In this document: positions 7,851-55,652 of the stretch, piece by piece | How the letters are laid out: each line of letters begins with the position of its first letter | Numbering within the stretch: the stretch's first letter is position 1 | NCBI GenBank assembly: GCA_038244715.1 | Contig: JBBRTE010000016.1 | Coordinates: forward strand, 13,212 to 77,211 | Direction of reading: 5' to 3' | Source: Thermoanaerobaculia bacterium | Lineage (GTDB): Bacteria; Acidobacteriota; Thermoanaerobaculia; Gp7-AA8 | DNA: 64,000 nucleotides | Notes under the pieces: model-generated | Seen by the model: only the letters and a program-made list of their open reading frames with translations | Told to the model about the DNA's origin: nothing | The model's database searches: none | Translations under genes and position numbers: made by a program

Positions 7851-7947
7851 CAGCAAGCGTGTGGCGCCGGCGGCCTCGCCGGCGTCTTAACATCCATTCA
7901 AACGGAGCAGTGACCGGCGCGCGGTCACTGCCTCCTGCCTGCGCTCA

Positions 7948-11950: not shown

Positions 11951-13111
11951 ATGAGTGTCAGCGGCAACCTCAAAACAATGCTTCCGGGCGATCTGCTCCA
12001 ATGGCTGAGCCTCGGCCAGAAGAGCGGCACGCTCGTGGTCCGGAACAAGGCCGTCGAGAAAAAGATCTTTTTCGGTAACGGGCGCGTGATCTCCTCCGCC
12101 TCGAACGATCCTCGCGAGTATCTCGGCCAGTTCCTCATGAGCCACGGCTACATCACCGAACCGGAACTGGTGAAGGCGATGGAGGTCCAGTCGCAGTCGC
12201 GCATCCTCCTCGGAAAAATCCTCGTCGTCATCGGCGTGATTTCGGAGGAGGACCTGCAACGTCTCATGCGCCTCAAGGCCGAGGAGGCGATCTACGACAT
12301 CTTTCTCTGGAACGAGGGGGAGTTCGAGTTCCTCGATGAAGTTCCGGACATGGAGATGATCCCGCTCAAGGTCGACGTCACCGGTCTGATCATGGAAGGC
12401 ACGCGGCGTGTCGATGAGTGGAACCGGATCAACACGCTCATCACGCACGAGGCCCTCGTCCCGACGCTCCTCAAAGAGGTCCCCGAGGAGGCGCTGGAGG
12501 ATGACGCGGAGCGGACGGTGGTCAATGCCATCGACGGCCGGCGATCGCTCGCGGAGCTCGTGCTGGAAAGCCGGTCCTCATCGTTCAACGTCGCCTCGAC
12601 GGTCTATCACCTGACGCGCGAGGGCTATCTCTCACTCGCCGATCCGACAATCGTCCCGCTGGTTCCCCCGGATGACGCCTCTCCCGCGATCGACGCGCCC
12701 CTGCCCTCCTTCGACGAATTCTCCGAAGACGACGAGATCATGTCGATGATCACCCGCGCGCAGCAGGCCATGCGCGCCCGCGACTACGAGAAAGCACAGA
12801 GGCTGCTCAAAGCCGCGGAAAACCTCGATCCCACGCATTCACGCGTGCGCAACGCCATCAAAGGTGCCGAATCGGCGATCCTCTCCGACCTGCGCAGCCA
12901 GGGGCTGCACGACCTCAAGGTCCCTCGTGTCGCCAAAGCGCTGGAAGAGATCACCCAGATGAACTTCACGCCGAATGAAGGCTTCATCCTCTCCCGCATC
13001 AACGGCCAATGGGACCTCGGCTCGCTGATCAAGATCTCCCCGATCCGCGAACCCGATGCGATGCTCATCTTCTACAAACTCTGGAAAGACGGCATCATCT
13101 CGCTCGACTAA
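11951..13111 (+). CDS. DUF4388 domain protein
   Basis: N-terminal GNLKTMLPGDLLQWLSLGQKSGTLVV resembles the DUF4388 signature. Acidic, disordered central region. Confidence 0.55.
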   Translation: MSVSGNLKTMLPGDLLQWLSLGQKSGTLVVRNKAVEKKIFFGNGRVISSASNDPREYLGQFLMSHGYITEPELVKAMEVQSQSRILLGKILVVIGVISEEDLQRLMRLKAEEAIYDIFLWNEGEFEFLDEVPDMEMIPLKVDVTGLIMEGTRRVDEWNRINTLITHEALVPTLLKEVPEEALEDDAERTVVNAIDGRRSLAELVLESRSSSFNVASTVYHLTREGYLSLADPTIVPLVPPDDASPAIDAPLPSFDEFSEDDEIMSMITRAQQAMRARDYEKAQRLLKAAENLDPTHSRVRNAIKGAESAILSDLRSQGLHDLKVPRVAKALEEITQMNFTPNEGFILSRINGQWDLGSLIKISPIREPDAMLIFYKLWKDGIISLD

Positions 13112-13197
13112 AAGAGAGACCTGCGCCCCGATTTCGCGCGAGGCGCTTTGGACTGCGGTGGCGTCAGCCACCGCTTTGGGCGGGGCGCAGATTCAGG

Positions 13198-14295
13198 CTA
13201 CTTCCCGCTCCATGCGTCGATCATCGTCATGAACTCGCCGAACAGGTGAAACGAGTCGTGCGGACCGGGCGCCGCCTCGGGATGGTACTGAACCGCCAGG
13301 ACCGGCTCGCGGCGATGGCGGAACCCTTCCAGCGTCTGATCGTTGAGGTTGATGTGGGTCGGCTCGACGTCATTCTCGTTCAGCGAGTCGGGATCGACCG
13401 AGAAGCCGTGGTTCTGCGCGGTGATCTCCACACGGCCGTTGCGCAAGTCCTTGACTGGATGATTTCCGCCGCGGTGTCCGAACTTTAGTTTGTAGGTGCG
13501 CCCGCCGAGAGCGAGACCGAGGAGCTGGTGGCCGAGGCAGATCCCGAAGATGGGGAGTTTGCCGATGAGATGGCGGATGTTCTCCTGCGCATACGTCACC
13601 GGCTCGGGATCGCCGGGTCCATTGGAGAGCATCAGGCCGTCGAAGTGCTGCGCCAGGATCTCGTCGGCGTGGGTCGTGGCGGGATAGACCGTCACGTCGC
13701 AACCGGCGCGTGAGAGGTGGCGGAGGATGTCGCGTTTGACGCCGAAGTCGTAGAGCGCGATGCGTTTCGTAGGATTGGCAGGCGGCTCGTTGAAGTGGTA
13801 CGGACGGAGCGCCGTCACGCGCTGCACGAGGTCGAGGCCGCTCATGGACGGCGCCTGGCGAATCTCTTCGACCACGCTGGCGACGGAGCGTTCGTTCTCG
13901 CCCGTGATCATGCCGCGCATCGCCCCTTCGTTGCGGATCCTGCGGGTCAGCGCGCGCGTGTCGATGCCCTGAATCGCGCTGATGCCGGTGCGCGCGAAGT
14001 AGTCCGGAAGCGACTCCTCTGAATGCGCGTTGGAGGGCTCGGCGATGGCGTCGCGCACGACGAAGCCGGCCACCTGCGGGTGCTCGTGCTGCGCGACGTC
14101 CGTCTCGATGCCGTAGTTTCCGATGTGCGGATACGTCATCACGACGATCTGGAATCGATACGAGGGGTCCGTGGCGATCTCCTGGTATCCAGCCATCGAC
14201 GTGTTGAACACGACTTCGCCGATCGTGTTGGCGGTGGCGCCAAACGACGCCCCTTCGTACACAGTTCCATCTTCGAGAATCAAGCGGGCAGGCAT
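13198..14295 (-). CDS. carA: carbamoyl-phosphate synthase small subunit
   Basis: MPARLILEDGTVYEG start. Glutamine amidotransferase triad region GICLGHQLL ... HPE. Start set at the internal Met; the longer ORF reads into the upstream repeat element. Confidence 0.9.
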   Translation of the reverse strand: MPARLILEDGTVYEGASFGATANTIGEVVFNTSMAGYQEIATDPSYRFQIVVMTYPHIGNYGIETDVAQHEHPQVAGFVVRDAIAEPSNAHSEESLPDYFARTGISAIQGIDTRALTRRIRNEGAMRGMITGENERSVASVVEEIRQAPSMSGLDLVQRVTALRPYHFNEPPANPTKRIALYDFGVKRDILRHLSRAGCDVTVYPATTHADEILAQHFDGLMLSNGPGDPEPVTYAQENIRHLIGKLPIFGICLGHQLLGLALGGRTYKLKFGHRGGNHPVKDLRNGRVEITAQNHGFSVDPDSLNENDVEPTHINLNDQTLEGFRHRREPVLAVQYHPEAAPGPHDSFHLFGEFMTMIDAWSGK

Positions 14296-14342
14296 CGGGG
14301 GCGGATTATACGCAGGGCGGGGGCGGGTATCGCTGACTGCGA

Positions 14343-14402
14343 GCCCCTCATCCGGCCGTCGGCCACCTTCTCCCCGCTGCCGCGGGGCGAAGGACCTCAC
14401 GA
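14343..14402. repeat. dispersed ~60-bp hairpin repeat, copy A
   Basis: GCCCCTCATCCGGCCGTCGGCCACCTTCTCCCCGCTGCCGCGGGGCGAAGGACCTCACG. Contains GGCCG-T-CGGCC and CCTTCTCCCC/GGGG(C/A)GAAGG stems. Near-identical copies at 14526-14585 (inverted) and 36502-36560. Confidence 0.7.
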
Positions 14403-14525
14403 TTTCGTTTCGCCATTACTGAAGAAAAGAGTCTACCGATCGTCTCAAAGCTGTTTCAACGCCTCGTCTTAGGACGTGGCGGCGATCAGATGAGAGACAT
14501 TTCGTGCAAATCCCGAACTCCGAAT

Positions 14526-14585
14526 CGCGAGGTCCTTCGCCCCGCAACGCGGGGAGAAGGTGGCCGAAGGCCGGATGAGGGGCTG
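14526..14585. repeat. dispersed ~60-bp hairpin repeat, copy B (inverted relative to copy A, ~120 bp away)
   Basis: The reverse complement matches copy A over ~60 nt with about 5 mismatches. Confidence 0.7.
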
Positions 14586-14649
14586 ACGCTGTTGCGGGAC
14601 TGGCACCAAACGCCTGCCATCGCTAGCGACTGCGAGGCTGCGCGATGCC

Positions 14650-15873
14650 CTATTCGTGCCGCAGTGCATCCACCGGATTCAACCTTGCCGCCCGCAGGGA
14701 CGGCAGAATCGTCGCCCCAAACGACACGAACAGCGAGAACGACGCGATGATCGCAAGATCGCTCGCCCTCGTCACGAACGGAATCGACGACACGAAGTAC
14801 ACCTGCGCGATCTCCGGCGGGAAGGAGACCAGGTGATAGCGGGTGATCAGCCAGCAGATCACGACGCCCAGGAACATCCCCGTGACGGTTCCCAGAACCC
14901 CGACCATCGTTCCGTACCAGATGAAGACGCGGCGCACCGTCCGCGACTCCGCACCCATCGACGCGAGGATGCCGATCTCCTTCCGCTTCTCGTGCACCGT
15001 CATGATCAGCGTCGAGACGATGTTGAACGTCGAGACGAACACGATCAGTCCGATGACGATGAACAGCACCAGTTGCTGGATCTTCAGCATGGAGAAGAGT
15101 TGGCGGTTCATGTCGCGCCAGTCGCTGATCGCGTACTGGTGCCCGGTGCGCACGTCGATTTCGCGGGAGACTGCATCGAGATCGGCTCCCGGAACGAGCT
15201 TCACCTCCAGAAGGTTGGCCGACGCCGGGGCCTGCAGGAGCTGCTGCGCCTCATTCAGATCGATGAAGAGCCAGCGCGCATCGAACTCATAGAACCCGGT
15301 GTCGAAGACGTTCGTCACGACAAACGACTCCGTCCGCGGCAGGAAACTTCCACCATCTTCCACAGGTACGGTGACGCTGATCGAGTGCCCGGCGGACACC
15401 CCGAGCTTCGTGGCCAGATAGCGGCCGATGGCGACGCCGCGTTCCCCTTGCGCCGTGTCGAAGGCCCCACGCTGCCCGACGATCTTCGCCAGCATCGGCG
15501 AGTGCTTCGCCCGTGCCGGCTCGATGCCCTTGAGCATCGCCTCGGTTCCCGTCGCGCTGCGCTCCGTCGTCACCAGCGCGTTCTTGAAGAGCACCGGAGC
15601 CGCCTCGGCGACCCCTGGAGTGCCGCGAATCCTGGCGATCAGATGTCCGGCGTCTTCGATCGGTCCGCCCACCGAGTAGACGAAGATCTCCGCGTTGCCG
15701 CCCAGCAGCTTCTTCTGCAGGTCGCCGCGATAGCCGGTCATGAGGGCCATCGAGATCACCAGGGCCATGACTCCGATGACGAGGCCGAGGACGGAGACGA
15801 AACCGACGGCGGAGACGAGCCGGTCGGTCGGCCGTCGCAGGTAGCGCCATGCGATCTCGCGAGGAAGATTCAT
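14650..15873 (-). CDS. ABC transporter permease, LolC/LolE (FtsX) family
   Basis: MNLPREIAWRYLRRP N-terminus, large periplasmic loop, C-terminal FtsX-type 3-TM bundle ending LNPVDALRHE. Confidence 0.8.
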   Translation of the reverse strand: MNLPREIAWRYLRRPTDRLVSAVGFVSVLGLVIGVMALVISMALMTGYRGDLQKKLLGGNAEIFVYSVGGPIEDAGHLIARIRGTPGVAEAAPVLFKNALVTTERSATGTEAMLKGIEPARAKHSPMLAKIVGQRGAFDTAQGERGVAIGRYLATKLGVSAGHSISVTVPVEDGGSFLPRTESFVVTNVFDTGFYEFDARWLFIDLNEAQQLLQAPASANLLEVKLVPGADLDAVSREIDVRTGHQYAISDWRDMNRQLFSMLKIQQLVLFIVIGLIVFVSTFNIVSTLIMTVHEKRKEIGILASMGAESRTVRRVFIWYGTMVGVLGTVTGMFLGVVICWLITRYHLVSFPPEIAQVYFVSSIPFVTRASDLAIIASFSLFVSFGATILPSLRAARLNPVDALRHE

Positions 15874-15940
15874 CGGCGCGTAGTGTACGAGCAGTCCATG
15901 GCCACGGGACCAAGCATCAAACTTGCTCTGTCTCCCATCC

Positions 15941-16609
15941 ATGAACCTCAAGGGAATGATCTTCGACGTCGACGGAACGCTCGTCAACTCCAACGAGGCG
16001 CACGTCCGTTGCTGGGTGGAGGCCTTTGCTCACTTCGGCAAGGCCCTCGATCCGGAGACGATCCGCCCTCACATGGGAAAAGGCGGCGACCTTCTCGTCC
16101 CGGACCTGGTGACTTCCCGGGAGATGCGGAGGTTCGGTGAGGAGCTGAAGACGTTCCGATCACTGCTCTTCAGGAAAAAGTACCTGACTGAGGTCAGGCC
16201 CTTCCCGCACGTCCGCGGGCTGTTCGAGACACTGTACGGACGCGGCATCAAGCTGGCGCTCGCTTCGTCTGCCGACGAAGAGGAGGTGAAGTACTATTCC
16301 GGCCTCCTTGGGGTGGACGACCTGCTGGCGGGATCGACGTCAAAACGTGACGCGGACTTCTCCAAGCCCTCCCCGGAGATTTTTCTGGCAGCCCTCGCCC
16401 GGATCGGCACGGAGACCCACGACACAATTACGGTCGGCGACACGCCCTACGACATCCTGGCTTCCCATCGCGCTGCAATGGCCATCGCGGCAGTGCGGTC
16501 CGGCGGTTTCGCGCAGGACGACCTGCAGAACGCAGAATTTCTCTTCGACGATGTCGAGGAACTGGTGAGAGAGATCGATCGAATCGATGACTACTTCAAC
16601 CATGAATGA
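15941..16609 (+). CDS. HAD family hydrolase (phosphatase-like)
   Basis: MIFDVDGTLV (DxDGT motif I), S/T motif II, and K...GDTPYD motifs. Confidence 0.75.
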   Translation: MNLKGMIFDVDGTLVNSNEAHVRCWVEAFAHFGKALDPETIRPHMGKGGDLLVPDLVTSREMRRFGEELKTFRSLLFRKKYLTEVRPFPHVRGLFETLYGRGIKLALASSADEEEVKYYSGLLGVDDLLAGSTSKRDADFSKPSPEIFLAALARIGTETHDTITVGDTPYDILASHRAAMAIAAVRSGGFAQDDLQNAEFLFDDVEELVREIDRIDDYFNHE

Positions 16610-20895: not shown

Positions 20896-22509
20896 ATGGA
20901 CGCGCGAAAGCGAATCGGTGTTTTCGGCTGGGGCGTCGTCGCGCCGAAGTCTCCCGACATCGAAACCTTTGAGCGCAATCTCGAGCGCCCCGACAGCTGG
21001 CTCTCCCCATTTCAAGGATTTGGTCCGTCAAATTTCCTGGTCGGTTACCCGGAGTTCGACTTCGAAACGTACCACGATTGGTTCGACCAGCGATTCCCGC
21101 CGGCGAAGTTCTCCCAGCTCAAAGACAAGATGGGACCGATGGTTCTGTCGTGCATTGGTGCCTTCATTCAGTCCCTCAAACAAAACCCCGGCATCGAGCA
21201 ATACCTCCACGCCCTCGGCACTCAGGCCCACGTATACATCGGCACCGGCCTTGGCGAGATCACCATCACCGCGGCAGAGACGCTCGCGTACGACCGCGCC
21301 TTCCGCAAGTGGAACGAGTTCTGGGCCGCGCCGGAGCGCTGTGCGCCGCTGCGCGCACACCGCGAGGGTTCTCCCGATTCGGATGCGCCTCCCGACCCGC
21401 AGCGGCTCACGATCGGCTCCGAGAATTGGATCGACGCGAAGCACGCCTGGGAGGCGTATTGGGCGGGCCGTAGCGATGATCTCGCCGTTTACCTCAAGGA
21501 AGCAGCGGAGATTCAGTCGGAGCCTGTGCCGCCCTCGTCCGGTTCGGCGAAGCTCAGCACGATCCGCCAGAAGCTGAGCAGGATTCGCGCGTTAAACAAG
21601 AAGTGGGGGTGTCCCGACGAGCCGTGGGCAGCCGTCTCGCCCAATCTCCTCTGGAACATCGCCAACATCGCCGCGTCACAGGTCTCGATGATCGGCCGCA
21701 TCGTCGGACCGGCCTTCGCACCCGTCGCGGCGTGTGCCTCTTTCGGAATCGCGCTGAAGATGGCGATCGACGCGATCCAGCTCGGCGAAGCGAAAGCCGT
21801 CGTCGTCGGCATGACCGATCCCCCACCGCACCCGATCGTCATCTCCGCGTTCTACAACGCGAACGTGCTCTCCGCGGACGCCGATGTCTCGCGTCCCCTG
21901 ACGGCGATGAAAGGAACGCACATCGCCGGCGGCTCCTGCGTCTGGATCGTCGGCGATGCCGAGGAGTTGATGGCGCGGGGATTTCGTCCCGTCGGGATGG
22001 AGATCGTCGGCGTCGGCACGTCCTCGGACGCGCATCACATCATCACGCCGTCGAAAGGCGGGCCGCAGCTGGCGATGAAACAGGCGATGGAGACCATGGA
22101 ATCCGCCGATGTCACGACGTGGGACATGCACGCCACCGCAACACCAGGCGACGCTACCGAGATCGCCAACTCGCTGGAGTTGCTCCATCCCGGCGTGCTC
22201 TTCACGGCGCGCAAGGGAACGTTCGGACACGGCATGTCCGTCGGCGGCGGCTGGGAGCTCACCGCTCAGCACCTCGGCATGGCCAAAGGCCGTCTCTATC
22301 CCGTTCCGCTGTCTGAAGGGGAGATGCACGAAGACGTGCGGCTCCAGGACGCGAAATTCGTCTCGAACCTCGGCTGCAGCATCACCGGCCGCGGCTACAG
22401 CGGCAAGCTGAGCATGGGCGTCGGCGGCATCAACTCCTGCGTGATCAGCAGGCCGTGGGACGACGCATTCGTCGATGAGCACATAGCGTCCCCGGCAGCG
22501 ACGGGTTGA
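20896..22509 (+). CDS. beta-ketoacyl synthase family protein (KAS I/II-like)
   Basis: Active-site Cys region AACASFGIA, and His regions HHIITPS / GHGMSVGGG typical of the KAS Cys-His-His triad. Confidence 0.8.
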   Translation: MDARKRIGVFGWGVVAPKSPDIETFERNLERPDSWLSPFQGFGPSNFLVGYPEFDFETYHDWFDQRFPPAKFSQLKDKMGPMVLSCIGAFIQSLKQNPGIEQYLHALGTQAHVYIGTGLGEITITAAETLAYDRAFRKWNEFWAAPERCAPLRAHREGSPDSDAPPDPQRLTIGSENWIDAKHAWEAYWAGRSDDLAVYLKEAAEIQSEPVPPSSGSAKLSTIRQKLSRIRALNKKWGCPDEPWAAVSPNLLWNIANIAASQVSMIGRIVGPAFAPVAACASFGIALKMAIDAIQLGEAKAVVVGMTDPPPHPIVISAFYNANVLSADADVSRPLTAMKGTHIAGGSCVWIVGDAEELMARGFRPVGMEIVGVGTSSDAHHIITPSKGGPQLAMKQAMETMESADVTTWDMHATATPGDATEIANSLELLHPGVLFTARKGTFGHGMSVGGGWELTAQHLGMAKGRLYPVPLSEGEMHEDVRLQDAKFVSNLGCSITGRGYSGKLSMGVGGINSCVISRPWDDAFVDEHIASPAATG

Positions 22510-22638
22510 CGCAAAGAGTTTCGACATTCCTTCCGCTCAAGCACCCGCCGGCGAGGCCGCCGGCGCCCCACTTGAGCTTGCGGGCCGCGCCCGAGGAAAA
22601 CCCGGAATGCCCCGCCCGGAAAACGCCTTATACAGCGA

Positions 22639-33065: not shown

Positions 33066-33706
33066 TTCTTCAGCACCGGCCGCGTGCCCCAATGCCCGTG
33101 GCGGAGGATCGATTGGCCGATGTATCCGGCGGTCGGAACGATCAGTGAGAGCACGAGGATCATCGTAAAGGCGAGCGGAAACCAGCGTGCGTCGAGGATC
33201 TCCACCAGCGAGATGCCCGCGCCGTAGATCGCACCGAATCCTCCGAAGAACCACGGCGCGTAGTCGAGCGCGATATCGAGGTCTCGCCTACCGTCGGCCC
33301 ACGGCTGGTTATAGACGCGCAGGATTCCCGATTGCAGCGCCTTCACGTCATAGAGCAGGTTCACGAGGCCCAGGACGCAACAGAGAATGATGGCGTTGCG
33401 CGCTACGTCCCGGAGGTCGTGCGCCGGCTCGCCGTGCACGAGCCATCCCAGCATCGCCGTCGCGGAGCCAAAGACGAAGCCGTGATGCGGACGAAAGCGG
33501 CCGAGGCGCAGGCGGGTGTTGAGCTCCCAGACCTTGAGGACGTTCGTGCCGATACCCGGGATGATGTACGCCCAGAGAATCGGAATCAGCCACGCCACCG
33601 CGATCCGCTCGGGATGGTCCGCGTACTCGACGCGCCATAAGAGAAACGATAGCGGCGCGAGCGCGAGGGGCGCAGCGTACTGGTAGATCGATAGCGTCCG
33701 TTTCAT
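33050..33706 (-). CDS. hypothetical polytopic membrane protein
   Basis: Start at internal MKRTLSIYQYAAPLALAPLSF. ATGA overlap with the upstream rSAM. Confidence 0.5.
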   Translation of the reverse strand: MKRTLSIYQYAAPLALAPLSFLLWRVEYADHPERIAVAWLIPILWAYIIPGIGTNVLKVWELNTRLRLGRFRPHHGFVFGSATAMLGWLVHGEPAHDLRDVARNAIILCCVLGLVNLLYDVKALQSGILRVYNQPWADGRRDLDIALDYAPWFFGGFGAIYGAGISLVEILDARWFPLAFTMILVLSLIVPTAGYIGQSILRHGHWGTRPVLKKCQNA

Positions 33707-35034
33707 CGCAGTCCGAAGCGCATCCCGTGCTTCTTCGGGATCTCTTTCCTGAACAGTAGCGTGTACTTCCAGAACGCTCCCACCCGCGCGAGCGATCGCA
33801 GGTGCGTCTGGATATCTGCGAAGCGGTGGAAGAGCGACGGAATCGTGTTGAACCGTGTCCGCGCGGCGTGGCATGCGTCGGTCAGCTCCTGCGGCGTCAT
33901 CAACTTCGGCACGAACGCCGCGCCATTGAACCGGTACTGCGGATGCAGCCACCATTTCCCATCCCACAACAACCGTCCCTCGGCCTCCAGCTTGTTGTAG
34001 AGCGGAGTATTCGGATACGGCATCAGGATGTTGTACGCGGCCAGGGTGAAGCGGCTCTCCAGCGCGAAGTCGACGGTCGCTTCGATCGACTCCTTCGTGT
34101 CGTGGTCATAGCCGAGGGTGAAGGCCGCCCAGCTCTGCATGCCGTGCTCGCGGAGGATGCGCACTTCTTCCTTGTACTTCGTGAAGCGCGGCAGATTGGG
34201 TGCCTTCTTCGACTCGCGCAGGCTGTCGGCAGTGATCGTCTCGAAGCCGGTGACGTTGCCCCAGTTGCCGGCGCGCTCCAGGAGCTTCATGAGCGGCAGG
34301 TTCCGCGTGATGTCCAGGCTGGCCTGGCTGACCCAGTGCAGGTTCATCGGGATCAGTGCGTGGCAGAACTCAGCCAGCGCCTTCTGGTCGCTGGCGATGT
34401 TGTCGTCGATGAAAAAGATGAACTTGCGATCCTGCGCCTCGATCTCGCGGAGCACGTCGTCGATCGCGCGGTGATAGTGCTTTCTGTCGAAATACTGACT
34501 GACCGCGCAGAAGGTGCACGCGAAGCGACAGCCGCGCACGTACTGCATGAGCGTCAGCGGCAGGTAGCCCTTGCCTTTGAAGAGATCGCGGCGCGGGAGG
34601 ACGCGGCCGATCTGTCCGACGCCCGGCGGGCCAACGTAACGCGGCTTGAGCCGGTCGTACCGCGCATCGTCGACGACGTCGGCCCACACGGTCTCGGCAT
34701 CCCCGAGGAAGAGGCTGTCGGCGTGCTCCGCCGCTTCCTCAGGCAGCAGCGTGATGTGCATGCCGCCGAGGATGACGGGGACGCCGCGGAGGCGGTATTC
34801 GGCGGCGATCTCGTACGCACGGCGCGCGGTGTAGGTCTCGACGGTGATCGCTGCGAGGTCGGTCGGCTCGTCGAACGGGATCGACTCCATGCGATCGTCG
34901 TAGAGGACGCATTCGACGTCGGGGGGCGTGAGCCCGGCCAGCACCGCCAGCATCAGCGGCTCCATGCGCCCTTCGTCGACATAGAGACTGTGCTCCATAC
35001 GGCCGATGTTCGGCTTGATGAACGTAATCTTCAT
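33703..35034 (-). CDS. B12-binding domain radical SAM protein (class B rSAM, DUF4070-type C-terminus), paralog 1
   Basis: N-terminal B12-binding fold (VILGGMHITLLPEE), CRFACTFC radical SAM cluster, C-terminal LAAYNILMPYPNTPLY region. Confidence 0.85.
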   Translation of the reverse strand: MKITFIKPNIGRMEHSLYVDEGRMEPLMLAVLAGLTPPDVECVLYDDRMESIPFDEPTDLAAITVETYTARRAYEIAAEYRLRGVPVILGGMHITLLPEEAAEHADSLFLGDAETVWADVVDDARYDRLKPRYVGPPGVGQIGRVLPRRDLFKGKGYLPLTLMQYVRGCRFACTFCAVSQYFDRKHYHRAIDDVLREIEAQDRKFIFFIDDNIASDQKALAEFCHALIPMNLHWVSQASLDITRNLPLMKLLERAGNWGNVTGFETITADSLRESKKAPNLPRFTKYKEEVRILREHGMQSWAAFTLGYDHDTKESIEATVDFALESRFTLAAYNILMPYPNTPLYNKLEAEGRLLWDGKWWLHPQYRFNGAAFVPKLMTPQELTDACHAARTRFNTIPSLFHRFADIQTHLRSLARVGAFWKYTLLFRKEIPKKHGMRFGLR

Positions 35035-36332
35035 GCGCCGAGCCGCCGGTACTGTTTCTTGTAGATCTCGCGCCGGGAGATGACGTTGGCTACGGTGATC
35101 ATCCCGCGCCGGAACAACGAGAAATCCGTTTCCGCGCGCAACACACGATCGCTGATGGAGCGCCAGGTGTAGAAGCGGCGCTTCGCTTCGAATACGCCTT
35201 CGATCAACTCCTCGGGGCGCATGCCGCGCGGCTCGAAGATCGCATCTCCGTATCGGTATCCCGCGGTGAGCCACCACTCGGGCTTGAGTAGCCGCCCCTC
35301 CCGCATCAGGCGGTCGTACAGCGCCGAGCCGGGAGTGGGCGTGAGCGGATTGAAGTTGGCGAGCTCGAGACGGGACTCCAGCGCGAAATCGACGGTGCGG
35401 CTCATGCTGTCATTCGTGTCGGCGTCGTAGCCGAAGACGAACGTGCCGTAGATGCCGATGTTGCGTGCGTGCAGCGCGTGGACGACGCGCTCGTAGGAGC
35501 CGCTGACGCTGTTCCACGACTTGTTCATTTGCCGCAGACTGTCGAGGTTCAGTGACTCGAATCCGATGAGGACGAACTCGCACCCGGCGGCAGCCATCCG
35601 ATCGAGCAGCGACTCATCGCGCGCGACGTCGATGCTGATCTGACACGACCAGCGGCGTTTCATCGGCGTCAGCGCATCGAGGAGTGCCAGCAGTTCGGAT
35701 CGGCGTCCGAAGAGGTTGTCATCGACGAAGAAGATCAGTCGCCCCGAAGGCAGCGTCTCGATCTCCTCGATCAAGCCGTCGAGCGGCCGCACGCGCAAGT
35801 CCGTTCCGTAGAAACTGTGAATGGAGCAGAAGTCGCACGCGAAGCGGCAACCGCGCCCGTACTGCACCAGCTCGACCGGCGCGTAGTTCTTGCCACGATA
35901 GATCGAGCGGTCGAGCCTGTAGTCCGAGAGCGTTCGCTCATTGCCGCCGGAGTAGCGCGCATGGAGGTCACCGGCTGCGAAGTCCGCCAGAAGACGCTCC
36001 CACGACCCTTCCGCGTCGCCGATGACGACGGCATCCGCATGCAGCAGCGCTTCGTCTGGAAGGAAGGTCGGATGATAGCCACCCATGACGACCGGGACGC
36101 CGCGCGCGCGATAGGTGTCCGCGATCGCGTACGCACGATGGGCGGTGAAGGTCTCGACGCTGAGCGCGACGAGGTCGGCGCTCTCGTGCAACGGAACACG
36201 CTCCGCCTTCTCGTCGTAGAAGCGCACGTCCCATCCCGGCGCCCGCGCGGCGAGGATGCCCATCGCCAGCGGAGGCATCGCGTCCGACGAGCGATAGTCG
36301 CCGAGGTTCGGGCGGATGAGGGTGAGCCTCAC
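35031..36332 (-). CDS. B12-binding domain radical SAM protein, paralog 2
   Basis: VVMGGYHPTFLPDE, CRFACDFC, FNPLTPTPGSALY; ATGA coupling on both sides. Confidence 0.85.
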   Translation of the reverse strand: MRLTLIRPNLGDYRSSDAMPPLAMGILAARAPGWDVRFYDEKAERVPLHESADLVALSVETFTAHRAYAIADTYRARGVPVVMGGYHPTFLPDEALLHADAVVIGDAEGSWERLLADFAAGDLHARYSGGNERTLSDYRLDRSIYRGKNYAPVELVQYGRGCRFACDFCSIHSFYGTDLRVRPLDGLIEEIETLPSGRLIFFVDDNLFGRRSELLALLDALTPMKRRWSCQISIDVARDESLLDRMAAAGCEFVLIGFESLNLDSLRQMNKSWNSVSGSYERVVHALHARNIGIYGTFVFGYDADTNDSMSRTVDFALESRLELANFNPLTPTPGSALYDRLMREGRLLKPEWWLTAGYRYGDAIFEPRGMRPEELIEGVFEAKRRFYTWRSISDRVLRAETDFSLFRRGMITVANVISRREIYKKQYRRLGA

Positions 36333-37564
36333 AGCAGTGCCGCCTCCGGTTGCGCGGGAAGTTGCGAGATCTGTGGCGCGCCGGCCGCCTCGCCTCCGTT
36401 CTTTTCAACATTGCCGGCTCGGCAGTCCGCGGCTTCCGCGCCGAAAGCCCTCACCGGCGAGGCCGCCTGTCCTTCTCTCTCCACTTCGCCAGAATCTCCA
36501 CCGCGAGGTCCTTCTCCCCGCGCAGAGGGGAGAAGGTGGCCGACGGCCGGATGAGGGGCCGGGTCGGCTCCATTCAGCGGCGTGTCGTCGAAGGACACAG
36601 CGTAGATTCTTGCTGGATAGCTGACCGGTTTGAATCGCTCGAGCGCCTGCAGCAGCGGATGCCCCGCATGGAGTCCAATGCTGGCTGCCGGCGTCCGGCA
36701 ATGCGACAGCAAGTCCTGCATCAGCTCGTAGGCGCCTTCCCGTACCGATTCCGACATCGCCAGGAACGCGATGAACGTCTGGTCGAGCGCTCTTCCTTCG
36801 CGCGGCAACGGGATGCGACGCAGCGCGCGCGCATAGAGATTTCTGAACGGTAGAATAGTTCCGAGGGGACGCCGGTAACGCCGGGCCACGATCTGCTTGA
36901 ATGCGCGCTGGTCCCACAGCGCCGCCACGGCCCGCAACTCGCCCTCTCGCTCCGCCACGTAGAAGTCGAGGCGCCGAGCGAGAGCTGCGTCGAGGACTGG
37001 AGCGTATTGAAACCGCGCGGCCTGGCGATTGTGGAACGCCACGATCTCATCGGCATCCCCCTCTTCCGCGCGACGCCAGAGCCCGCGGTGTTTTCCCCGC
37101 GCGACCGCGAGTGCGAGCGTCCGGTACTCGCCCTGGAAGTGATACGGCGGAATCCCGGCGATACCGGACTCCAGCAGCCGTCGCGCAATGCGGTTCTCCG
37201 ATCCGACCACGGTGAACCAACACGGAACCTTTCTCGGCGCAAGCCGGGTGATGGATGCGTAGCCACCTCGCAGATGACGGATGCGCCGGCGGTGGGGAGG
37301 GTTCACGCGTAGGCCGCCGAGATACCCGAGCTCTTCGCGGCGTCCATTCAAATACGCCGGGATCATCGCCACCGTGTACATGCCCACGACGTCTCCGGCT
37401 TCTTCGGCGATGACGGCCCAGTCGCGACCGAAGAGATTCTCACCCGCGAAGAACGACGGCTCGCGCTCGATCGCCATCTCGACCCAGCCCGGCATTGCGT
37501 TGTCTCTCAGCATCGCCCGAATCTGCGCGTCATCCGCCTCGGTCGCGATCCGATACGTCGTCAT
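36329..37564 (-). CDS. tandem GNAT-fold acyltransferase-like protein; C-terminal ~80 aa is encoded by repeat copy C
   Basis: N-terminal RIATEADDAQIRAMLRDNAMPGWVEM... has a GNAT-like fold and there is a second similar half. The low-complexity tail GHLLPSARGEGPRGGDSGEVEREG... coincides with the dispersed repeat. Confidence 0.5.
   Translation of the reverse strand: MTTYRIATEADDAQIRAMLRDNAMPGWVEMAIEREPSFFAGENLFGRDWAVIAEEAGDVVGMYTVAMIPAYLNGRREELGYLGGLRVNPPHRRRIRHLRGGYASITRLAPRKVPCWFTVVGSENRIARRLLESGIAGIPPYHFQGEYRTLALAVARGKHRGLWRRAEEGDADEIVAFHNRQAARFQYAPVLDAALARRLDFYVAEREGELRAVAALWDQRAFKQIVARRYRRPLGTILPFRNLYARALRRIPLPREGRALDQTFIAFLAMSESVREGAYELMQDLLSHCRTPAASIGLHAGHPLLQALERFKPVSYPARIYAVSFDDTPLNGADPAPHPAVGHLLPSARGEGPRGGDSGEVEREGQAASPVRAFGAEAADCRAGNVEKNGGEAAGAPQISQLPAQPEAALL
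36502..36560. repeat. dispersed ~60-bp hairpin repeat, copy C (inside the 3' end of the GNAT-like ORF)
   Basis: Reverse complement GGCCCCTCATCCGGCCGTCGGCCACCTTCTCCCCTCTGCGCGGGGAGAAGGACCTCGCG. Perfect 10-bp stem CCTTCTCCCC/GGGGAGAAGG. Confidence 0.7.
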
Positions 37565-38907
37565 CGCACTTCCAGCAATTTGCCCTGCCAGGTCTCGTCG
37601 CCGAGGGGATGGCCATTCCGTTGCGAGATCTCGTTGCGGTGCATCGCGTTCACGATGAAAAAATTGCGGAGGACGAACGCGTCATGGAAATGGCGGGTGC
37701 TGCGCCGGGCGATGTTGGCCCAACCATAAAAACGACGGCGGGCGGAGACACAGCCGGCGGTCACATCCTCCGGCGTCATCCCCTTCGGGGCGAACGGCAC
37801 CGCGTTGTACCGATACTCCGGATCCAGCCACCATGCCTCGAAGCGCAGTCTCCCCTCGGCCTGCAGCCGTTTGTACAACGGCGTGCCCGGGAACGGAGTC
37901 AGGTGGTTGAACGCCGCGATGTACATCCCCTCCTCCGTTGCGAAGTCCACGGCCTGGTCGAACGACTGCAGCGTGTCGTGCTCGTAGCCGAAGATGAAGG
38001 TGCCGTAGACGAAGATGTGATTGCGGCGGAGATTGGCAAGAGCCTTTGTGAAGCCGCCCTTCATCGCGTTGAAGCGCTTGTTCATCAGCTTCAGGTTCTC
38101 CTCGTCGAGGCTCTCGAAGCCGATCAGAACGCCGCGGCAACCGGCTCGATACAACTCGGCGAGAAAGCCCTCGTCGTGGGCCGCGTCGATACTCATCTGC
38201 GTGATCCAGCGAATATTCAGCTTGCGCAGCTCTTCCAGAAGCGGCCGTCCCGATTGCAGTTCGCCGGCAAAGTTGTCGTCGACAAAGAAAAAGAGTTTCT
38301 TCTCGTCCTTGATCGATGTCAGCTCGCGGATGACGTCGTCGACCTCACGCCGCCGGTAGGTGCGCGAATAGAACGTCTGGATCGCGCAGAACTCGCATGG
38401 GAATCGGCACCCGCGACCCGTCTCGATGAGTCCGATGGGCAGGTAGCGCTTGTCGCGGAAGAGACGCCGGTCGACGCGAATCGTCGTCAGAGAGGGCTGA
38501 CCTCCCTGATAGCGGCGCTGCAGCGTTCCATGCTTCAAGTCGTCGATCACCCGCGCCCACACCCCCTCGGCCTCGCCGATGACGATTGCGTCTGCGAAGC
38601 GCGCGACTTCATCCGGCATCAGCGTGGCGTGGAAGCCGCCCATGATCACGGTGACGCCGCGCCGTCGGTACTCGCTGGCGATCTGGTAGGCGCGGGCCGC
38701 GGTGTAGGTCTCGATGGGGATGGCCACGGCATCCGTCGGCGCATCGAACCTGATCGGCTCCATCCGGTCGTCGTAGAACGCGACGTCGACATCCGCCGGC
38801 GTGAGACCGGCCAGGACGGCCACCGGCAACGATTCCATCTGCCAGGAGCGGACGTACTTCTCGCCTGCGCGGTGACCGACTGCCGGGTGGACGAACGTCA
38901 GCCGCAT
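37561..38907 (-). CDS. B12-binding domain radical SAM protein, paralog 3
   Basis: VIMGGFHATLMPDE, CRFPCEFC, FNHLTPFPGTPLY. Start at internal MRLTFVHPAVG. Confidence 0.85.
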   Translation of the reverse strand: MRLTFVHPAVGHRAGEKYVRSWQMESLPVAVLAGLTPADVDVAFYDDRMEPIRFDAPTDAVAIPIETYTAARAYQIASEYRRRGVTVIMGGFHATLMPDEVARFADAIVIGEAEGVWARVIDDLKHGTLQRRYQGGQPSLTTIRVDRRLFRDKRYLPIGLIETGRGCRFPCEFCAIQTFYSRTYRRREVDDVIRELTSIKDEKKLFFFVDDNFAGELQSGRPLLEELRKLNIRWITQMSIDAAHDEGFLAELYRAGCRGVLIGFESLDEENLKLMNKRFNAMKGGFTKALANLRRNHIFVYGTFIFGYEHDTLQSFDQAVDFATEEGMYIAAFNHLTPFPGTPLYKRLQAEGRLRFEAWWLDPEYRYNAVPFAPKGMTPEDVTAGCVSARRRFYGWANIARRSTRHFHDAFVLRNFFIVNAMHRNEISQRNGHPLGDETWQGKLLEVR

Positions 38908-40253
38908 ACGGTCTTGCTCATCACGGAGAGGTGCCAGTCGCAGTTGTAGAAGCGCTGCAGATGATGCGCGTAGAAGCGATAGCCGAGGTTCGCGGCGATC
39001 CCGAGAGGATCGAAGGCGCGAGCGCGCCACAGTCTCGAGGCGATGGACCGGTATCGATAGACCTTCTTCCACGCCACCTCGTGACCCGCCGAGAGTTGCT
39101 GCACGGTCATGTTGCGCGGCTGAAAGACAACATGTTGACCATCGTAGAGCTCCCAGTTGCGTGTGAGGATGCGGCCTTCACTCGCCAGCCGTTGGTGCAG
39201 CGGCGTTCCGGGAAAGGGCGTGAGGATCGCGAACCGCGGGAGGTCGATGGCGTTGTCGATCGCGAACGCCGCCGTGCTCTCGAAGACATCGAGGTGGTCG
39301 TGATCGAGGCCGAAGACGAAGCAGCCCTGGATGGCGATGCCGAGGTCGTGGAGATGGCGGATGAGCGAGGGATAGTCGACCGAACCGTTGAAGCGCTTAT
39401 TCGCATCACCGAGACTGCCGGGCGTAATGCTCTCGAGGCCGAGGAGGAGTCCGCGGCAACCGGAGCGGGCCATGAGCTCCATCAGATCGGGATCATGAGC
39501 GATGAGCACGGTCGACAGTCCGAACCAGCGCACCTTCAGCGGGATCATCGCGGTGAAAAGCTCGCGCGCGTAGGCCTTGTCCGCGACGAGATTCAGATCG
39601 ATGAAGAGGATGCGCTTCTGTCCGACGCGACGGATGTCTTCGACGACCCACGACACCGGCTTCTGAAACTGGCGACTTCCCCACGCGGTCGGCGCGATGC
39701 AGAACTCGCAGTCGTGACCGCAGGAGCGCGTGGCCTCAAAGACTGCCTGCGTCAGGAAACGCCTTCCGTCGAAGAGGTCGCGGCGCGCAAACGGCATGTC
39801 GCGCTCGAGCGAGAAATCGAGGGCCTGGCGGTACTCGGACTGGAGCTTTCTGTCGCGGAAGTCCAGCAGCAGTTTCGGCCAGGTATCTTCCGCGTATCCG
39901 ACCACGATCGCGTCGGCGTGACCGGCGGCTTCGTCGGGAACGAGCGTGACATGCGGTCCGCCCAGAACGACGGTCTTGCCCTCGGCGCGGAAACGTGCGG
40001 CCAGCGCGTACGCGCGTGGAGCCGTGCCGGTGATGACGGTCATCCCAACGAGATCGGCGTCGAGTTCGTCCGGAACGTCCTCGATGCCTTCGTCATAGAG
40101 CTTGATCGTCGCACCAAGGTCTGCCGGCACGAGTGCCGCGAGCGTGGTCAGCGTCAGCGGCTGATACCGAAGGGATTTGCGGAAGATTCCGTTGCGATGA
40201 CGGTAGAGGGGACCCTTGGGCGAGATCAGTGCGAGTTTCAAAGAGACCTCCAC
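38898..40253 (-). CDS. B12-binding domain radical SAM protein, paralog 4
   Basis: VVLGGPHVTLVPDE, CGHDCEFC, FAILTPFPGTPLH. Confidence 0.85.
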   Translation of the reverse strand: MEVSLKLALISPKGPLYRHRNGIFRKSLRYQPLTLTTLAALVPADLGATIKLYDEGIEDVPDELDADLVGMTVITGTAPRAYALAARFRAEGKTVVLGGPHVTLVPDEAAGHADAIVVGYAEDTWPKLLLDFRDRKLQSEYRQALDFSLERDMPFARRDLFDGRRFLTQAVFEATRSCGHDCEFCIAPTAWGSRQFQKPVSWVVEDIRRVGQKRILFIDLNLVADKAYARELFTAMIPLKVRWFGLSTVLIAHDPDLMELMARSGCRGLLLGLESITPGSLGDANKRFNGSVDYPSLIRHLHDLGIAIQGCFVFGLDHDHLDVFESTAAFAIDNAIDLPRFAILTPFPGTPLHQRLASEGRILTRNWELYDGQHVVFQPRNMTVQQLSAGHEVAWKKVYRYRSIASRLWRARAFDPLGIAANLGYRFYAHHLQRFYNCDWHLSVMSKTVCG

Positions 40254-55540: not shown

Positions 55541-55652
55541 GAATGTTGAATGTTCAAGCTTAAATGTTCAATGTTGAATGAGGTGTGCTTCACGACCAGA
55601 TCTCGTACCCATTCAGCATCCAACATCCAACATTGAACATTCAACATTTTCA
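55541..55652. repeat. AT-rich heptad-repeat palindrome (ATGTTGA/ATGTTCA units in inverted arms) between oppD-like and oppF-like genes
   Basis: Left arm GAATGTTGAATGTTCAAGCTTAAATGTTCAATGTTGAATGAGG; right arm CATTCAGCATCCAACATCCAACATTGAACATTCAACATTTTCA; ~30-bp spacer. Locally about 35% GC in a high-GC genome. Confidence 0.7.

Follow-up and report, generated by a model that had tools for sequence, protein, structure and literature searches.

What is the ~60-nt GC-rich hairpin sequence that recurs upstream of carA in a Thermoanaerobaculia bacterium, and to which class of bacterial repeats does it belong? The question arises from a 64,000-nt stretch of contig JBBRTE010000016.1 (assembly GCA_038244715.1; the window hereafter), for which a first-pass annotation had described a dispersed hairpin repeat with copies at 14343-14402 (copy A), 14526-14585 (copy B) and 36502-36560 (copy C), and had likened the inverted A/B pair to a miniature inverted-repeat transposable element (MITE) or to a doublet of repetitive extragenic palindromes (REPs), as in bacterial interspersed mosaic elements (BIMEs). 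Our analysis indicates that the copies are probably a previously unlisted variant of the BoxC/PIT/TM_ECO superfamily (PIT, potential intrastrand triplex), in which one triad level reads A*A.T and not G*G.C (hence ‘T-type’) and the second loop is a structured one of 12 nt instead of 3 nt. We propose that these copies fold into a hairpin/triplex as single-stranded DNA.

Three copies of a three-block element

Copies were searched within the 64,000-nt window. A 33-nt core, allowed up to three mismatches, matches solely at 14343 (+), 14551 (-) and 36527 (-), with 0, 1 and 0 mismatches and an expectation of 0.00 in 100 shuffles, and the hairpin pattern CCTTCTCCCC-N3-12-GGGGMGAAGG is likewise restricted to these places, which bears out the three ~60-nt copies. 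A covariance model scores copy B at 71 bits, copy A at 67.8 and copy C at 67.6, and finds no fourth copy in the window, the next full-length match reaching 13 bits. A weak match of 13 bits, at 36257-36325, covers DNA of a radical-SAM N-terminus (LTLIRP: CACCCTCATCCGCCC) that is tail-like and lies ~180 bp from copy C; the likeness is probably a coincidence. Identity is 97% over 36-38 nt for A vs B and for A vs C, and 90% over 58 nt for B vs C; across the full 60-nt spans first described, global identity is 87-90%. An Rfam scan of window positions 13000-16000, judged by E-value, gave no match, a Pfam search of the spurious peptides encoded by the repeat gave no family, and a literature search with sequence strings of the element returned nothing relevant.

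Read on the G-rich strand, which is the reference for anatomy unless stated otherwise, each copy is comprised of a Y-arm CCTTC(T/G)CCCC, a loop, an R-arm GGGGAGAAGG, a T with the mini-hairpin GGCC-GAA/GAC-GGCC, and a tail GGATGAGGGG (coordinates in Table 1). In the C-rich orientation this becomes the tail CCCCTCA(T/C)CC, the small hairpin (mostly GGCC-TTC-GGCC), an A and a hairpin of 10-12 bp, whose base is CC(T/C)TCTCCCC / GGGGAGA(A/G)GG and whose top and loop are variable; outside the core, loops and flanks are lineage-specific. The smaller stem, originally given as GGCCG/CGGCC, is in fact GGCC/GGCC closed by a 3-nt loop (GTC or TTC), while the larger stem is present as described except for one conserved mismatch in copies A and B (GGGGCGAAGG). 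A single G.A mismatch of this kind in the big stem (GGGG[C]GAAGG, C-rich strand) is found in 10/56 copies, A and B included. The small loop on the G-rich strand is GAA in 168 copies, and the remainder are mostly GNA or GNNA.

The defining feature of the element had been passed over: the end ‘GCCCCTCATCC’, taken for an unpaired flank, is a third block that is mirror-symmetric to the big stem. Reading the purine arm (GGGGAGAAGG or GGGGAGAGGG) in mirror order yields the tail (GGATGAGGGG or GGGTGAGGGG), apart from a single T that stands opposite an A. The arm leads from the loop down to the base and the tail returns upwards from there, so the two are antiparallel. The resulting 10 triads all belong to the canonical set of the purine motif (G*G.C, A*A.T or T*A.T); copies A and B have 10/10 on the Hoogsteen side, each with one G.A Watson-Crick mismatch. 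All three window copies thus carry the class II block order of pyrimidine arm, purine arm and 3' purine/T reverse-Hoogsteen block. As in H-DNA-type mirror repeats, GGGGAGAAGG-N12-GGATGAGGGG is mirror-symmetric but for one A/T position. Two linked subtypes can be distinguished, a T-type with tail CCCTCATCC and stem CCTTCTCC / GGAGAAGG, and a C-type with tail CCCTCACCC and stem CCCTCTCC / GGAGAGGG.

Tail and stem covary across phyla

Covariation within the helices was assessed in an alignment of 56 diverse copies, picked by a script that requires the hairpin. Paired cells make up 96.4% of this alignment compared with ~60% in slid controls, double-sided changes account for 55 cells compared with 12.6 in shuffles, and all four pairs of the small helix vary on both sides. 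As a counter-check, a regular expression lacking the small-hairpin requirement yielded 22 distinct inter-block sequences, ~20 of which were judged to be perfect hairpins. The linker is 12 nt long in 159 copies and only 3 nt in 29, so the small hairpin is a linker and not a required part.

The mirror (triplex) relation was tested on ~260 copies from at least seven phyla, with hairpins detected without any requirement for a tail. Among big hairpins with an upstream tail motif (C-rich orientation), stem and tail are of the same type in 193 TT and 60 CC cases and discordant in 10. The length of the C-run in the tail tracks that of the paired run in the stem, with a run of 4 answered by 4 in 132/172 cases, 5 by 5 in 31/38 and 6 by 6 in 10/12. 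Length changes are followed as well: a 1-nt deletion is mirrored in the tail (CCTCTCCCC with CCACTCCCC), as are a 2-nt deletion (CCCTCCCC with CCCACCCC) and arms of 11 and 12 nt. A mirror score of at least 9 is reached by 182/732 purine-arm hairpins, compared with 39 under direct mapping and 2 on the upstream side. In heterotypic (T + C) inverted doublets, where both types share one locus, the tail fits its own stem in 39/40 cases, which argues that the tail-stem linkage is not a genome or lineage artefact. The comparison shows a three-block design that compensatory evolution maintains across phyla, in substitutions, run lengths and indels, and the covariation is comparative evidence of selection on a triplex-compatible design.

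The same data bear on which strand and which nucleic acid would fold. The invariant T of the tail (G strand) is a canonical T*A.T in the purine motif, whereas its complement is a mismatch in the pyrimidine motif of the other strand. Together with the GNA loops and the finding that purine-motif triplexes do not form in RNA (PMC4666352), this makes the G strand of the DNA a better candidate than the C strand or an RNA. An explanation that dispenses with a triplex is a repeated site for a conserved DNA-binding or topology protein that reads both purine blocks, by analogy with gyrase, IHF and Pol I at E. coli BIMEs. Such a site would suit blocks that are extremely conserved across phyla while the loops vary, and the BIME-like arrays of loci L082 and L088, but proteins read inverted or direct repeats and not mirror repeats, the indels and run lengths are compensated in mirror fashion, and no candidate protein was found, which leaves a protein site as a quite improbable account of the element.

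A probable variant of the BoxC/PIT/TM_ECO family

TM_ECO is the name given to the BoxC repeat of E. coli after its rediscovery as the PIT element (Holder et al. 2015, NAR 43:10126, PMC4666352; Hoyne et al. 2000, cited therein). Its pattern, 5'-CCCTCNCCC-N3-6-GGGNGAGGG-N3-GGGNGAGGG-3', corresponds to a class II purine-motif intrastrand triplex, and the published census counted 3610 copies in 262 proteobacterial genomes, with 23 copies in MG1655, always intergenic, without strand bias and not on transposons, phages or plasmids (PMC4666352). Two types are distinguished by the second loop, TTA or CCG; a single mismatch is frequent, and inverted doublets always combine both types (PMC4666352). The triplex was observed by circular dichroism and nuclear magnetic resonance on the isolated strand, with a Tm of 70-82 C, rearrangement is elevated around TM_ECO loci, and earlier work found no promoter or terminator activity for PIT/TM_ECO (PMC4666352). 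BoxC/PIT/TM_ECO repeats date back to the 1990s and are not known to form the triplex in vivo. The family was described in E. coli, Synechocystis and H. influenzae (PMC4666352). The published triplex finder admits loops of 1-6 nt (PMC4666352); a variant with a 12-nt second loop would therefore be missed by it.

To compare the two directly, the E. coli type A ‘mm’ sequence was reconstructed from the published control oligonucleotide as CCCTCGCCCC-TTT-GGGGAGAGGG-TTA-GGGTGAGGGG. The C-type blocks are identical to it in all three blocks, G.A mismatch included. This sequence is present at 100% identity in 4605/5426 complete E. coli genomes, at 21527 chromosomal vs 7 plasmid places, and among the matches listed no annotated feature lies under the match. 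The window copies differ from the strict TM_ECO pattern at one position per block and in their 12-nt second loop. The strict pattern itself is matched by C-type partners in 8 Planctomycetota loci and in one viral contig, and in each of the 8 Planctomycetota loci the strict TM_ECO copy forms a doublet with a T-type copy that has the hairpin linker, which physically ties the two forms together. The likeness to a REP doublet or BIME seen in the first-pass annotation is justified insofar as the element is dispersed, intergenic and found in inverted doublets; its third block, mirror-symmetric to the big stem, nevertheless places it in the BoxC/PIT/TM_ECO family of intrastrand triplexes and not among classical REPs.

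Several points weigh against this assignment and the folding proposed with it. The strict TM_ECO pattern has 0 matches in the window, the triplex of the window copies is a prediction from sequence, and for TM_ECO itself the triplex was not seen in duplex DNA or by in vivo dimethyl sulfate footprinting (PMC4666352). Copies are related by descent, so the Fisher p-value for tail and stem exaggerates how independent they are, although the mixed doublets and the indel variants mitigate this. The A/T position apart, the covariation would be explained equally well by a triplex of the pyrimidine motif formed by the C-rich strand, or by a protein recognizing both blocks. All non-proteobacterial hosts are metagenome-assembled genomes (MAGs), and the gene-context statistics given below rest on a crude caller of open reading frames (ORFs), whose N-termini are over-extended and most of whose ‘inside ORF’ calls are artefacts.

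Distribution and genomic context

The exact 31-nt core (CCCTCATCCGGCCNTCGGCCACCTTCTCCCC) is present in more than 119 stretches of a collection of species-representative genomes. Its hosts, from at least seven phyla, include Thermoanaerobaculia, Planctomycetota (Kuenenia included), Alpha-, Beta- and Gammaproteobacteria, Chloroflexota, Verrucomicrobiota, Vampirovibrionales and Desulfobacterota. A sample drawn independently of the element, 480 kb fetched through lolE from 80 Thermoanaerobaculia genomes, holds 24 full-length copies in 12 loci, or ~1 per 20 kb, a density like that of the window (3 per 64 kb). With this density, mostly intergenic positions and frequent inverted doublets, the repeat is indeed a dispersed hairpin family, as first suggested. 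Only 2 of 2.9 million viral contigs carry the core, and plasmid matches are confined to Rhizobiaceae replicons (Sinorhizobium, Shinella, Rhizobium, Ciceribacter), mostly of megaplasmid or chromid size. The window copies share variants of their own, namely the extension ACCTCRCG and a GTC loop that, of 149 copies, only A and C possess, which argues for amplification within the lineage.

Across loci the two orientations are used 36:25 (p = 0.2), with no strand bias. Clearly intergenic copies favor convergent and tandem spacers, convergent ones being enriched and divergent ones depleted (chi-square p = 8e-4). All-vs-all clustering of nearby ORFs found no enriched neighboring gene family, only housekeeping families. 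In Lysobacterales, ~1-kb BIME-like arrays of alternating-orientation copies of several subtypes occupy L082 5700-6800 and L088 800-1400, and these arrays yield long spurious ORFs rich in GEKV.EGRMRG / PSPR.RGEG peptides.

The lolE-carA spacer and the A/B doublet

Copies A and B lie in the 354 bp that separate a lolE-like permease gene, with its stop at 14650, from the true carA start at 14295 (MPARLILEDG), both genes being on the minus strand; among proteins of Thermoanaerobaculia MAGs, none is more than 87% identical to the lolE-like product, which places the window within that class of Acidobacteriota. In the longest carA ORF, 13198-14400 (-), the reading frame runs through copy A and gains 35 spurious codons at the N-terminus, and automatic annotation would probably place its start wrongly. 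The element is absent from the orthologous lolE-carA spacer of all ~57 relatives with delimitable synteny. These spacers are hypervariable, with lengths of 19-2155 bp and palindromic repeats that differ by species: a solo hairpin in L123, a doublet of the same family in L120 and the AATGTTGAATGTTCA repeat in L145. The latter, also present in the window (Table 1), is a second REP-like doublet family in this lineage. The sole conserved part of the spacer among relatives is the cgTATAATccgccccg motif, which marks the downstream limit of the zone of repeat insertion. In all spacers it lies only ~9 nt before the carA ATG, where it may serve as the -10 box of a carA mRNA that has no leader or a very short one.

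The inverted A/B pair does enclose ~120 bp of lower-GC DNA, as had been noted, and this centre is unique, not found elsewhere as a repeated unit. In relatives the half-centres (ACCTCRCG / YGAGGT) abut as a short palindromic centre, and in compact ~125-nt T/C doublets from related genomes and soil metagenomes the ACCTCRCG extension is half of a palindromic centre (GGACCTCACGTGAGATCC). The A/B pair thus looks like a doublet whose centre was expanded, or inserted into, by ~118 nt. As a single strand, the whole doublet is predicted to fold into a hairpin with ~68-bp arms at -183.6 kcal/mol (z = -14.9).

So stable a fold raises the possibility of a cis element acting at the RNA level, such as a 3' untranslated region or intercistronic stabilizer, a terminator, an attenuator or an RNase III site that would tune the flanking genes, here lolE and carA. 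The enrichment of copies after genes, between convergent and tandem genes, would agree with such a role, as would the very stable hairpins and the position of the doublet just upstream of the conserved carA TATAAT. At the A/B locus, however, a terminator scan found no U-tract or terminator match, and Rfam gave no match; both orientations are used, and a function for lolE or carA sits poorly with the absence of the element from ~57 orthologous spacers. Earlier tests moreover detected no promoter or terminator activity in PIT/TM_ECO, RNA does not form purine-motif triplexes (PMC4666352), and a simple hairpin would leave the mirror covariation of tail and stem unexplained. We therefore regard an RNA-level function as unlikely.

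Copy C lies within a GNAT-like gene

The peptide string RGEGGRRPDEG, previously assigned to spurious ORFs, can be read in all three copies, but copy C is more plausibly translated from the opposite strand, within a real GNAT-like gene. In 13 relatives this ORF is 344-348 aa long, ends in ...SFDGTAPPNGRPAQPEAALL* with a stop that overlaps the radical-SAM start, and lacks the insertion seen in the window. The window ORF has 411 aa (...SFDDTPLNG[70 aa]PAQPEAALL*) and keeps the last nine codons and the GTGA stop/start overlap, so that the extra DNA, copy C included, entered in frame with nine codons left before the stop. A possible degenerate partner of copy C at ~36447-36482 was read by eye and is undetected by the covariance model.

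The GNAT-like gene is interleaved in a cluster of radical-SAM paralogues at 33703-39072, with at least three in tandem (-), and several long direct repeats of the window are due to this paralogy. Elsewhere in the window, a 26-nt GC-rich inverted match of 96% joins 7859-7884 and 22546-22571 (GTGTGGCGCCGGCGGCCTCGCCGGCG).

Table 1 Features of the repeat copies and their surroundings in the window.
Feature	Positions	Strand	Sequence	Remarks
Copy A	14343..14402	-		G-rich (triplex-capable) strand is minus; repeat, core, pattern and covariance-model matches
Copy A tail complement	14344-14353	+ coordinates	CCCCTCATCC	
Copy A mini-hairpin	14354-14364	+ coordinates	GGCC-GTC-GGCC	then A 14365
Copy A R-arm complement	14366-14377	+ coordinates	CCTTCTCCCCGC	loop 14378-14381
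Copy A Y-arm complement	14382-14393	+ coordinates	GCGGGGCGAAGG	one G.A mismatch (published ‘mm’ type)
Copy A half-centre	14394-14401	+ coordinates	ACCTCACG	
Copy B	14526..14585	+		G-rich strand is plus; repeat, core, pattern and covariance-model matches
Copy B half-centre	14526-14533		CGCGAGGT	
Copy B Y-arm	14534-14545		CCTTCGCCCCGC	loop AAC 14546-14548
Copy B R-arm	14549-14560		GCGGGGAGAAGG	then T 14561
Copy B mini-hairpin	14562-14572		GGCC-GAA-GGCC	
Copy B third-strand tail	14573-14582		GGATGAGGGG	
Copy C	36502..36560	+		G-rich strand is plus; repeat, core, pattern and covariance-model matches
Copy C half-centre	36502-36509		CGCGAGGT	
Copy C Y-arm	36510-36519		CCTTCTCCCC	loop 36520-36526
Copy C R-arm	36527-36536		GGGGAGAAGG	then T 36537
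Copy C mini-hairpin	36538-36548		GGCC-GAC-GGCC	
Copy C tail	36549-36558		GGATGAGGGG	10/10 triads canonical
Conserved motif before carA	14296..14320	-	...cgTATAATccgccccg	directly upstream of carA ATG; TATAAT at 14310..14305
Unique centre of A/B doublet	14402..14525	.		123 bp; 48% GC vs 63% in the window
Sigma70-like match	14459..14430	-	TTGAAA-18-TAGACT	in A/B centre, towards carA; weak, sole promoter-like site
Whole A/B doublet	14325..14600	-		tails outward; single-strand fold
GNAT-like ORF	36329-37564	-		weak GNAT match; upstream of B12-type radical-SAM gene
In-frame insertion	36359..36568	-		~210 nt (70 codons) near 3' end of GNAT-like ORF; holds copy C
Second inverted-repeat element	55542-55648		AATGTTGAATGTTCA	39-nt arms, 82% complementary; same repeat in L145 spacer

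Mobility and partners

If the A/B pair were the terminal inverted repeats of a MITE derived from a DDE-type insertion sequence (IS), as the first-pass annotation had considered, its ~60-bp arms around 123 bp would have the right geometry, and one S. meliloti doublet is indeed flanked by AAATC...AAATC. The other eight of the nine doublets viewed with their flanks have no target-site duplication, however, so none is consistent across them. The centre is unique DNA, no autonomous IS with the element as its ends was found in the loci examined, and the neighborhood of copies is not enriched in any transposase family. Many copies stand alone or form doublets with their tails inward, and where two copies bracket 2-3 kb the DNA between them encodes ordinary genes, among them those for RNase III, acyl-CoA dehydrogenases and an amidohydrolase. 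We reject the reading of the copies as transposon ends because the bracketed DNA carries ordinary genes, and a MITE origin is very improbable. In one betaproteobacterial contig, a single case, a gene for a PD-(D/E)XK Rpn/YhgA-like putative transposase (PDDEXK_2, E = 4.5e-53) lies between copies (L016 304-1212).

A closer match in habit is offered by classical REPs and by REPINs (REP doublets forming hairpins), non-autonomous hairpin doublets moved in trans by a single-copy REP-associated tyrosine transposase (RAYT, an HUH Y1 enzyme) that reads a hairpin and a tag. Here too inverted doublets are common, convergent and tandem spacers are favored, target-site duplications are missing and a conserved unpaired tag stands beside the hairpin. 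The element also shares an IS110-family visitor with REPs. On S. meliloti pSymB, where an element doublet lies between convergent genes, strains 1021 (L202 ~1427) and RMO17 (L204 ~1530) carry the same IS110-family element in copy 1 or copy 2, with transposases (DEDD_Tnp_IS110 and Transposase_20 domains) that are 98.5% identical between the two strains. Both insertions are at CAC|CT|TCTCC with CT at both junctions, in parallel to IS621 and ISPpu9 in REPs, and they would fit a bridge-RNA-type, site-specific targeting of the repeat. No IS110 interruption was found in other phyla among the loci examined.

What separates the element from this system is its structure, its partners and its range. A tagged REP consists of one imperfect palindrome, 20-40 nt long, and carries GTAG or CGTC as its terminal tag (PMC3733652); set against this description, the element shows two hairpins and the 10-nt tag CCCCTCATCC, with no GTAG/CGTC tag and no single 8-9-bp stem. 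A tblastn search with IS200 TnpA and RayT found no Y1/RAYT-like ORF in ~1.5 Mb of element-bearing DNA, and a RayT probe (100% identical to K-12 rayT) found no homologue on the Sinorhizobium, Shinella and Rhizobium replicons in PLSDB, though the element is present there. RAYT/REPIN pairs are lineage-specific, whereas the 31-nt core spans at least seven phyla, and the mirror covariation of tag and stem is not predicted by a RAYT model. A classical REP/REPIN identity therefore has a low probability. In its behavior the element is like a non-coding repeat that lacks a transposase and comes and goes at intergenic sites.

Proposed mechanism and significance

For the BoxC/PIT/TM_ECO variant favored here, we propose that the G-rich strand, when transiently single-stranded during replication, repair or transcription, would form a highly stable hairpin/triplex in which the major groove of the stem accommodates the tail in antiparallel orientation, as in a purine-motif triplex. 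The in vitro behavior assumed in this proposal is taken from published TM_ECO work and triplex chemistry, and the copies here were folded with a nearest-neighbor hairpin model. The folded element could stall polymerases and promote slippage, template switching and error-prone or repair-associated rearrangement, and through such rearrangement it could plausibly be copied to new sites without a dedicated transposase. Stalling and rearrangement would fit the hypervariable spacers and the deletion derivatives in L201, L212, L214 and L216. For the neighboring genes the consequences are probably incidental: lolE and the carA promoter have a strong structure between them, and the GNAT-like protein tolerates 70 additional aa.

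More tentatively, the intrastrand DNA triple helix itself may be under selection in vivo, which would imply a widely conserved cellular activity that recognizes or propagates hairpin-triplex DNA and would make the T-type a pan-bacterial branch of BoxC-like replicators invisible to existing triplex finders. If so, the mirror three-way covariation would amount to the same sort of comparative evidence that supports RNA structures. With the window copies as probable members, the BoxC/PIT/TM_ECO family extends to Acidobacteriota, Planctomycetota, Verrucomicrobiota, Chloroflexota and other phyla, and one common variant conceals the third strand behind a structured 12-nt loop that loop-limited searches miss. 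Tail and stem coevolve in just the way demanded by a purine-motif triplex, which makes the cellular relevance of the structure testable by comparative genomics and compensatory mutagenesis. On the practical side, the element makes spurious ORFs (RGEGGRRPDEG / PLIRPSATFSP peptides) and extends real ones, as at the carA N-terminus; it can sit in frame inside genes, break assemblies and serve as a landing pad of the IS110 (bridge-RNA) type.

Comparison with known systems

The element has the short GC-rich intergenic hairpins, inverted doublets, mosaic arrays, lack of target-site duplications and IS110-family targeting of the REP/BIME/REPIN-RAYT systems of E. coli and Pseudomonas, but differs from them in having no GTAG/CGTC tag, two hairpins with a mirror-repeat tail, no RAYT found and a core that is cross-phylum and not lineage-specific. 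Copy C, within a tolerated in-frame insertion in a protein-coding gene, recalls the Rickettsia palindromic elements, although sequence and structure are unrelated and the single genic case here is at the extreme 3' end. With H-DNA the element has in common a purine mirror repeat, made up of R-arm and tail, that could adopt a *R.R.Y triplex. In contrast to H-DNA, an inverted repeat folding within the strand as a hairpin provides the duplex half, with a structured 12-nt spacer, so the structure needs only one strand.

The comparison with BoxC/PIT/TM_ECO goes further. Both have the same three-block class II layout on one strand, with C-type blocks CCCTC(T/G)CCCC / GGGGAGAGGG / GGGTGAGGGG, a frequent single G.A mismatch, mostly intergenic positions without strand bias, inverted doublets, no linked mobile-element genes and unstable loci. 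Unlike in TM_ECO, one triad level of the window copies is A*A.T in place of G*G.C, a change made jointly by the three blocks, and their second loop is 12 nt with a GNA mini-hairpin and not TTA or CCG. The first hairpin is often lengthened by GC pairs, one copy (copy C) lies inside a coding region, and the hosts are Acidobacteriota and at least six other phyla. As to the make-up of doublets, which always combine two types in TM_ECO, 40 of those examined here are heterotypic (T/C) and 39 homotypic, the window doublet being homotypic (T/T).

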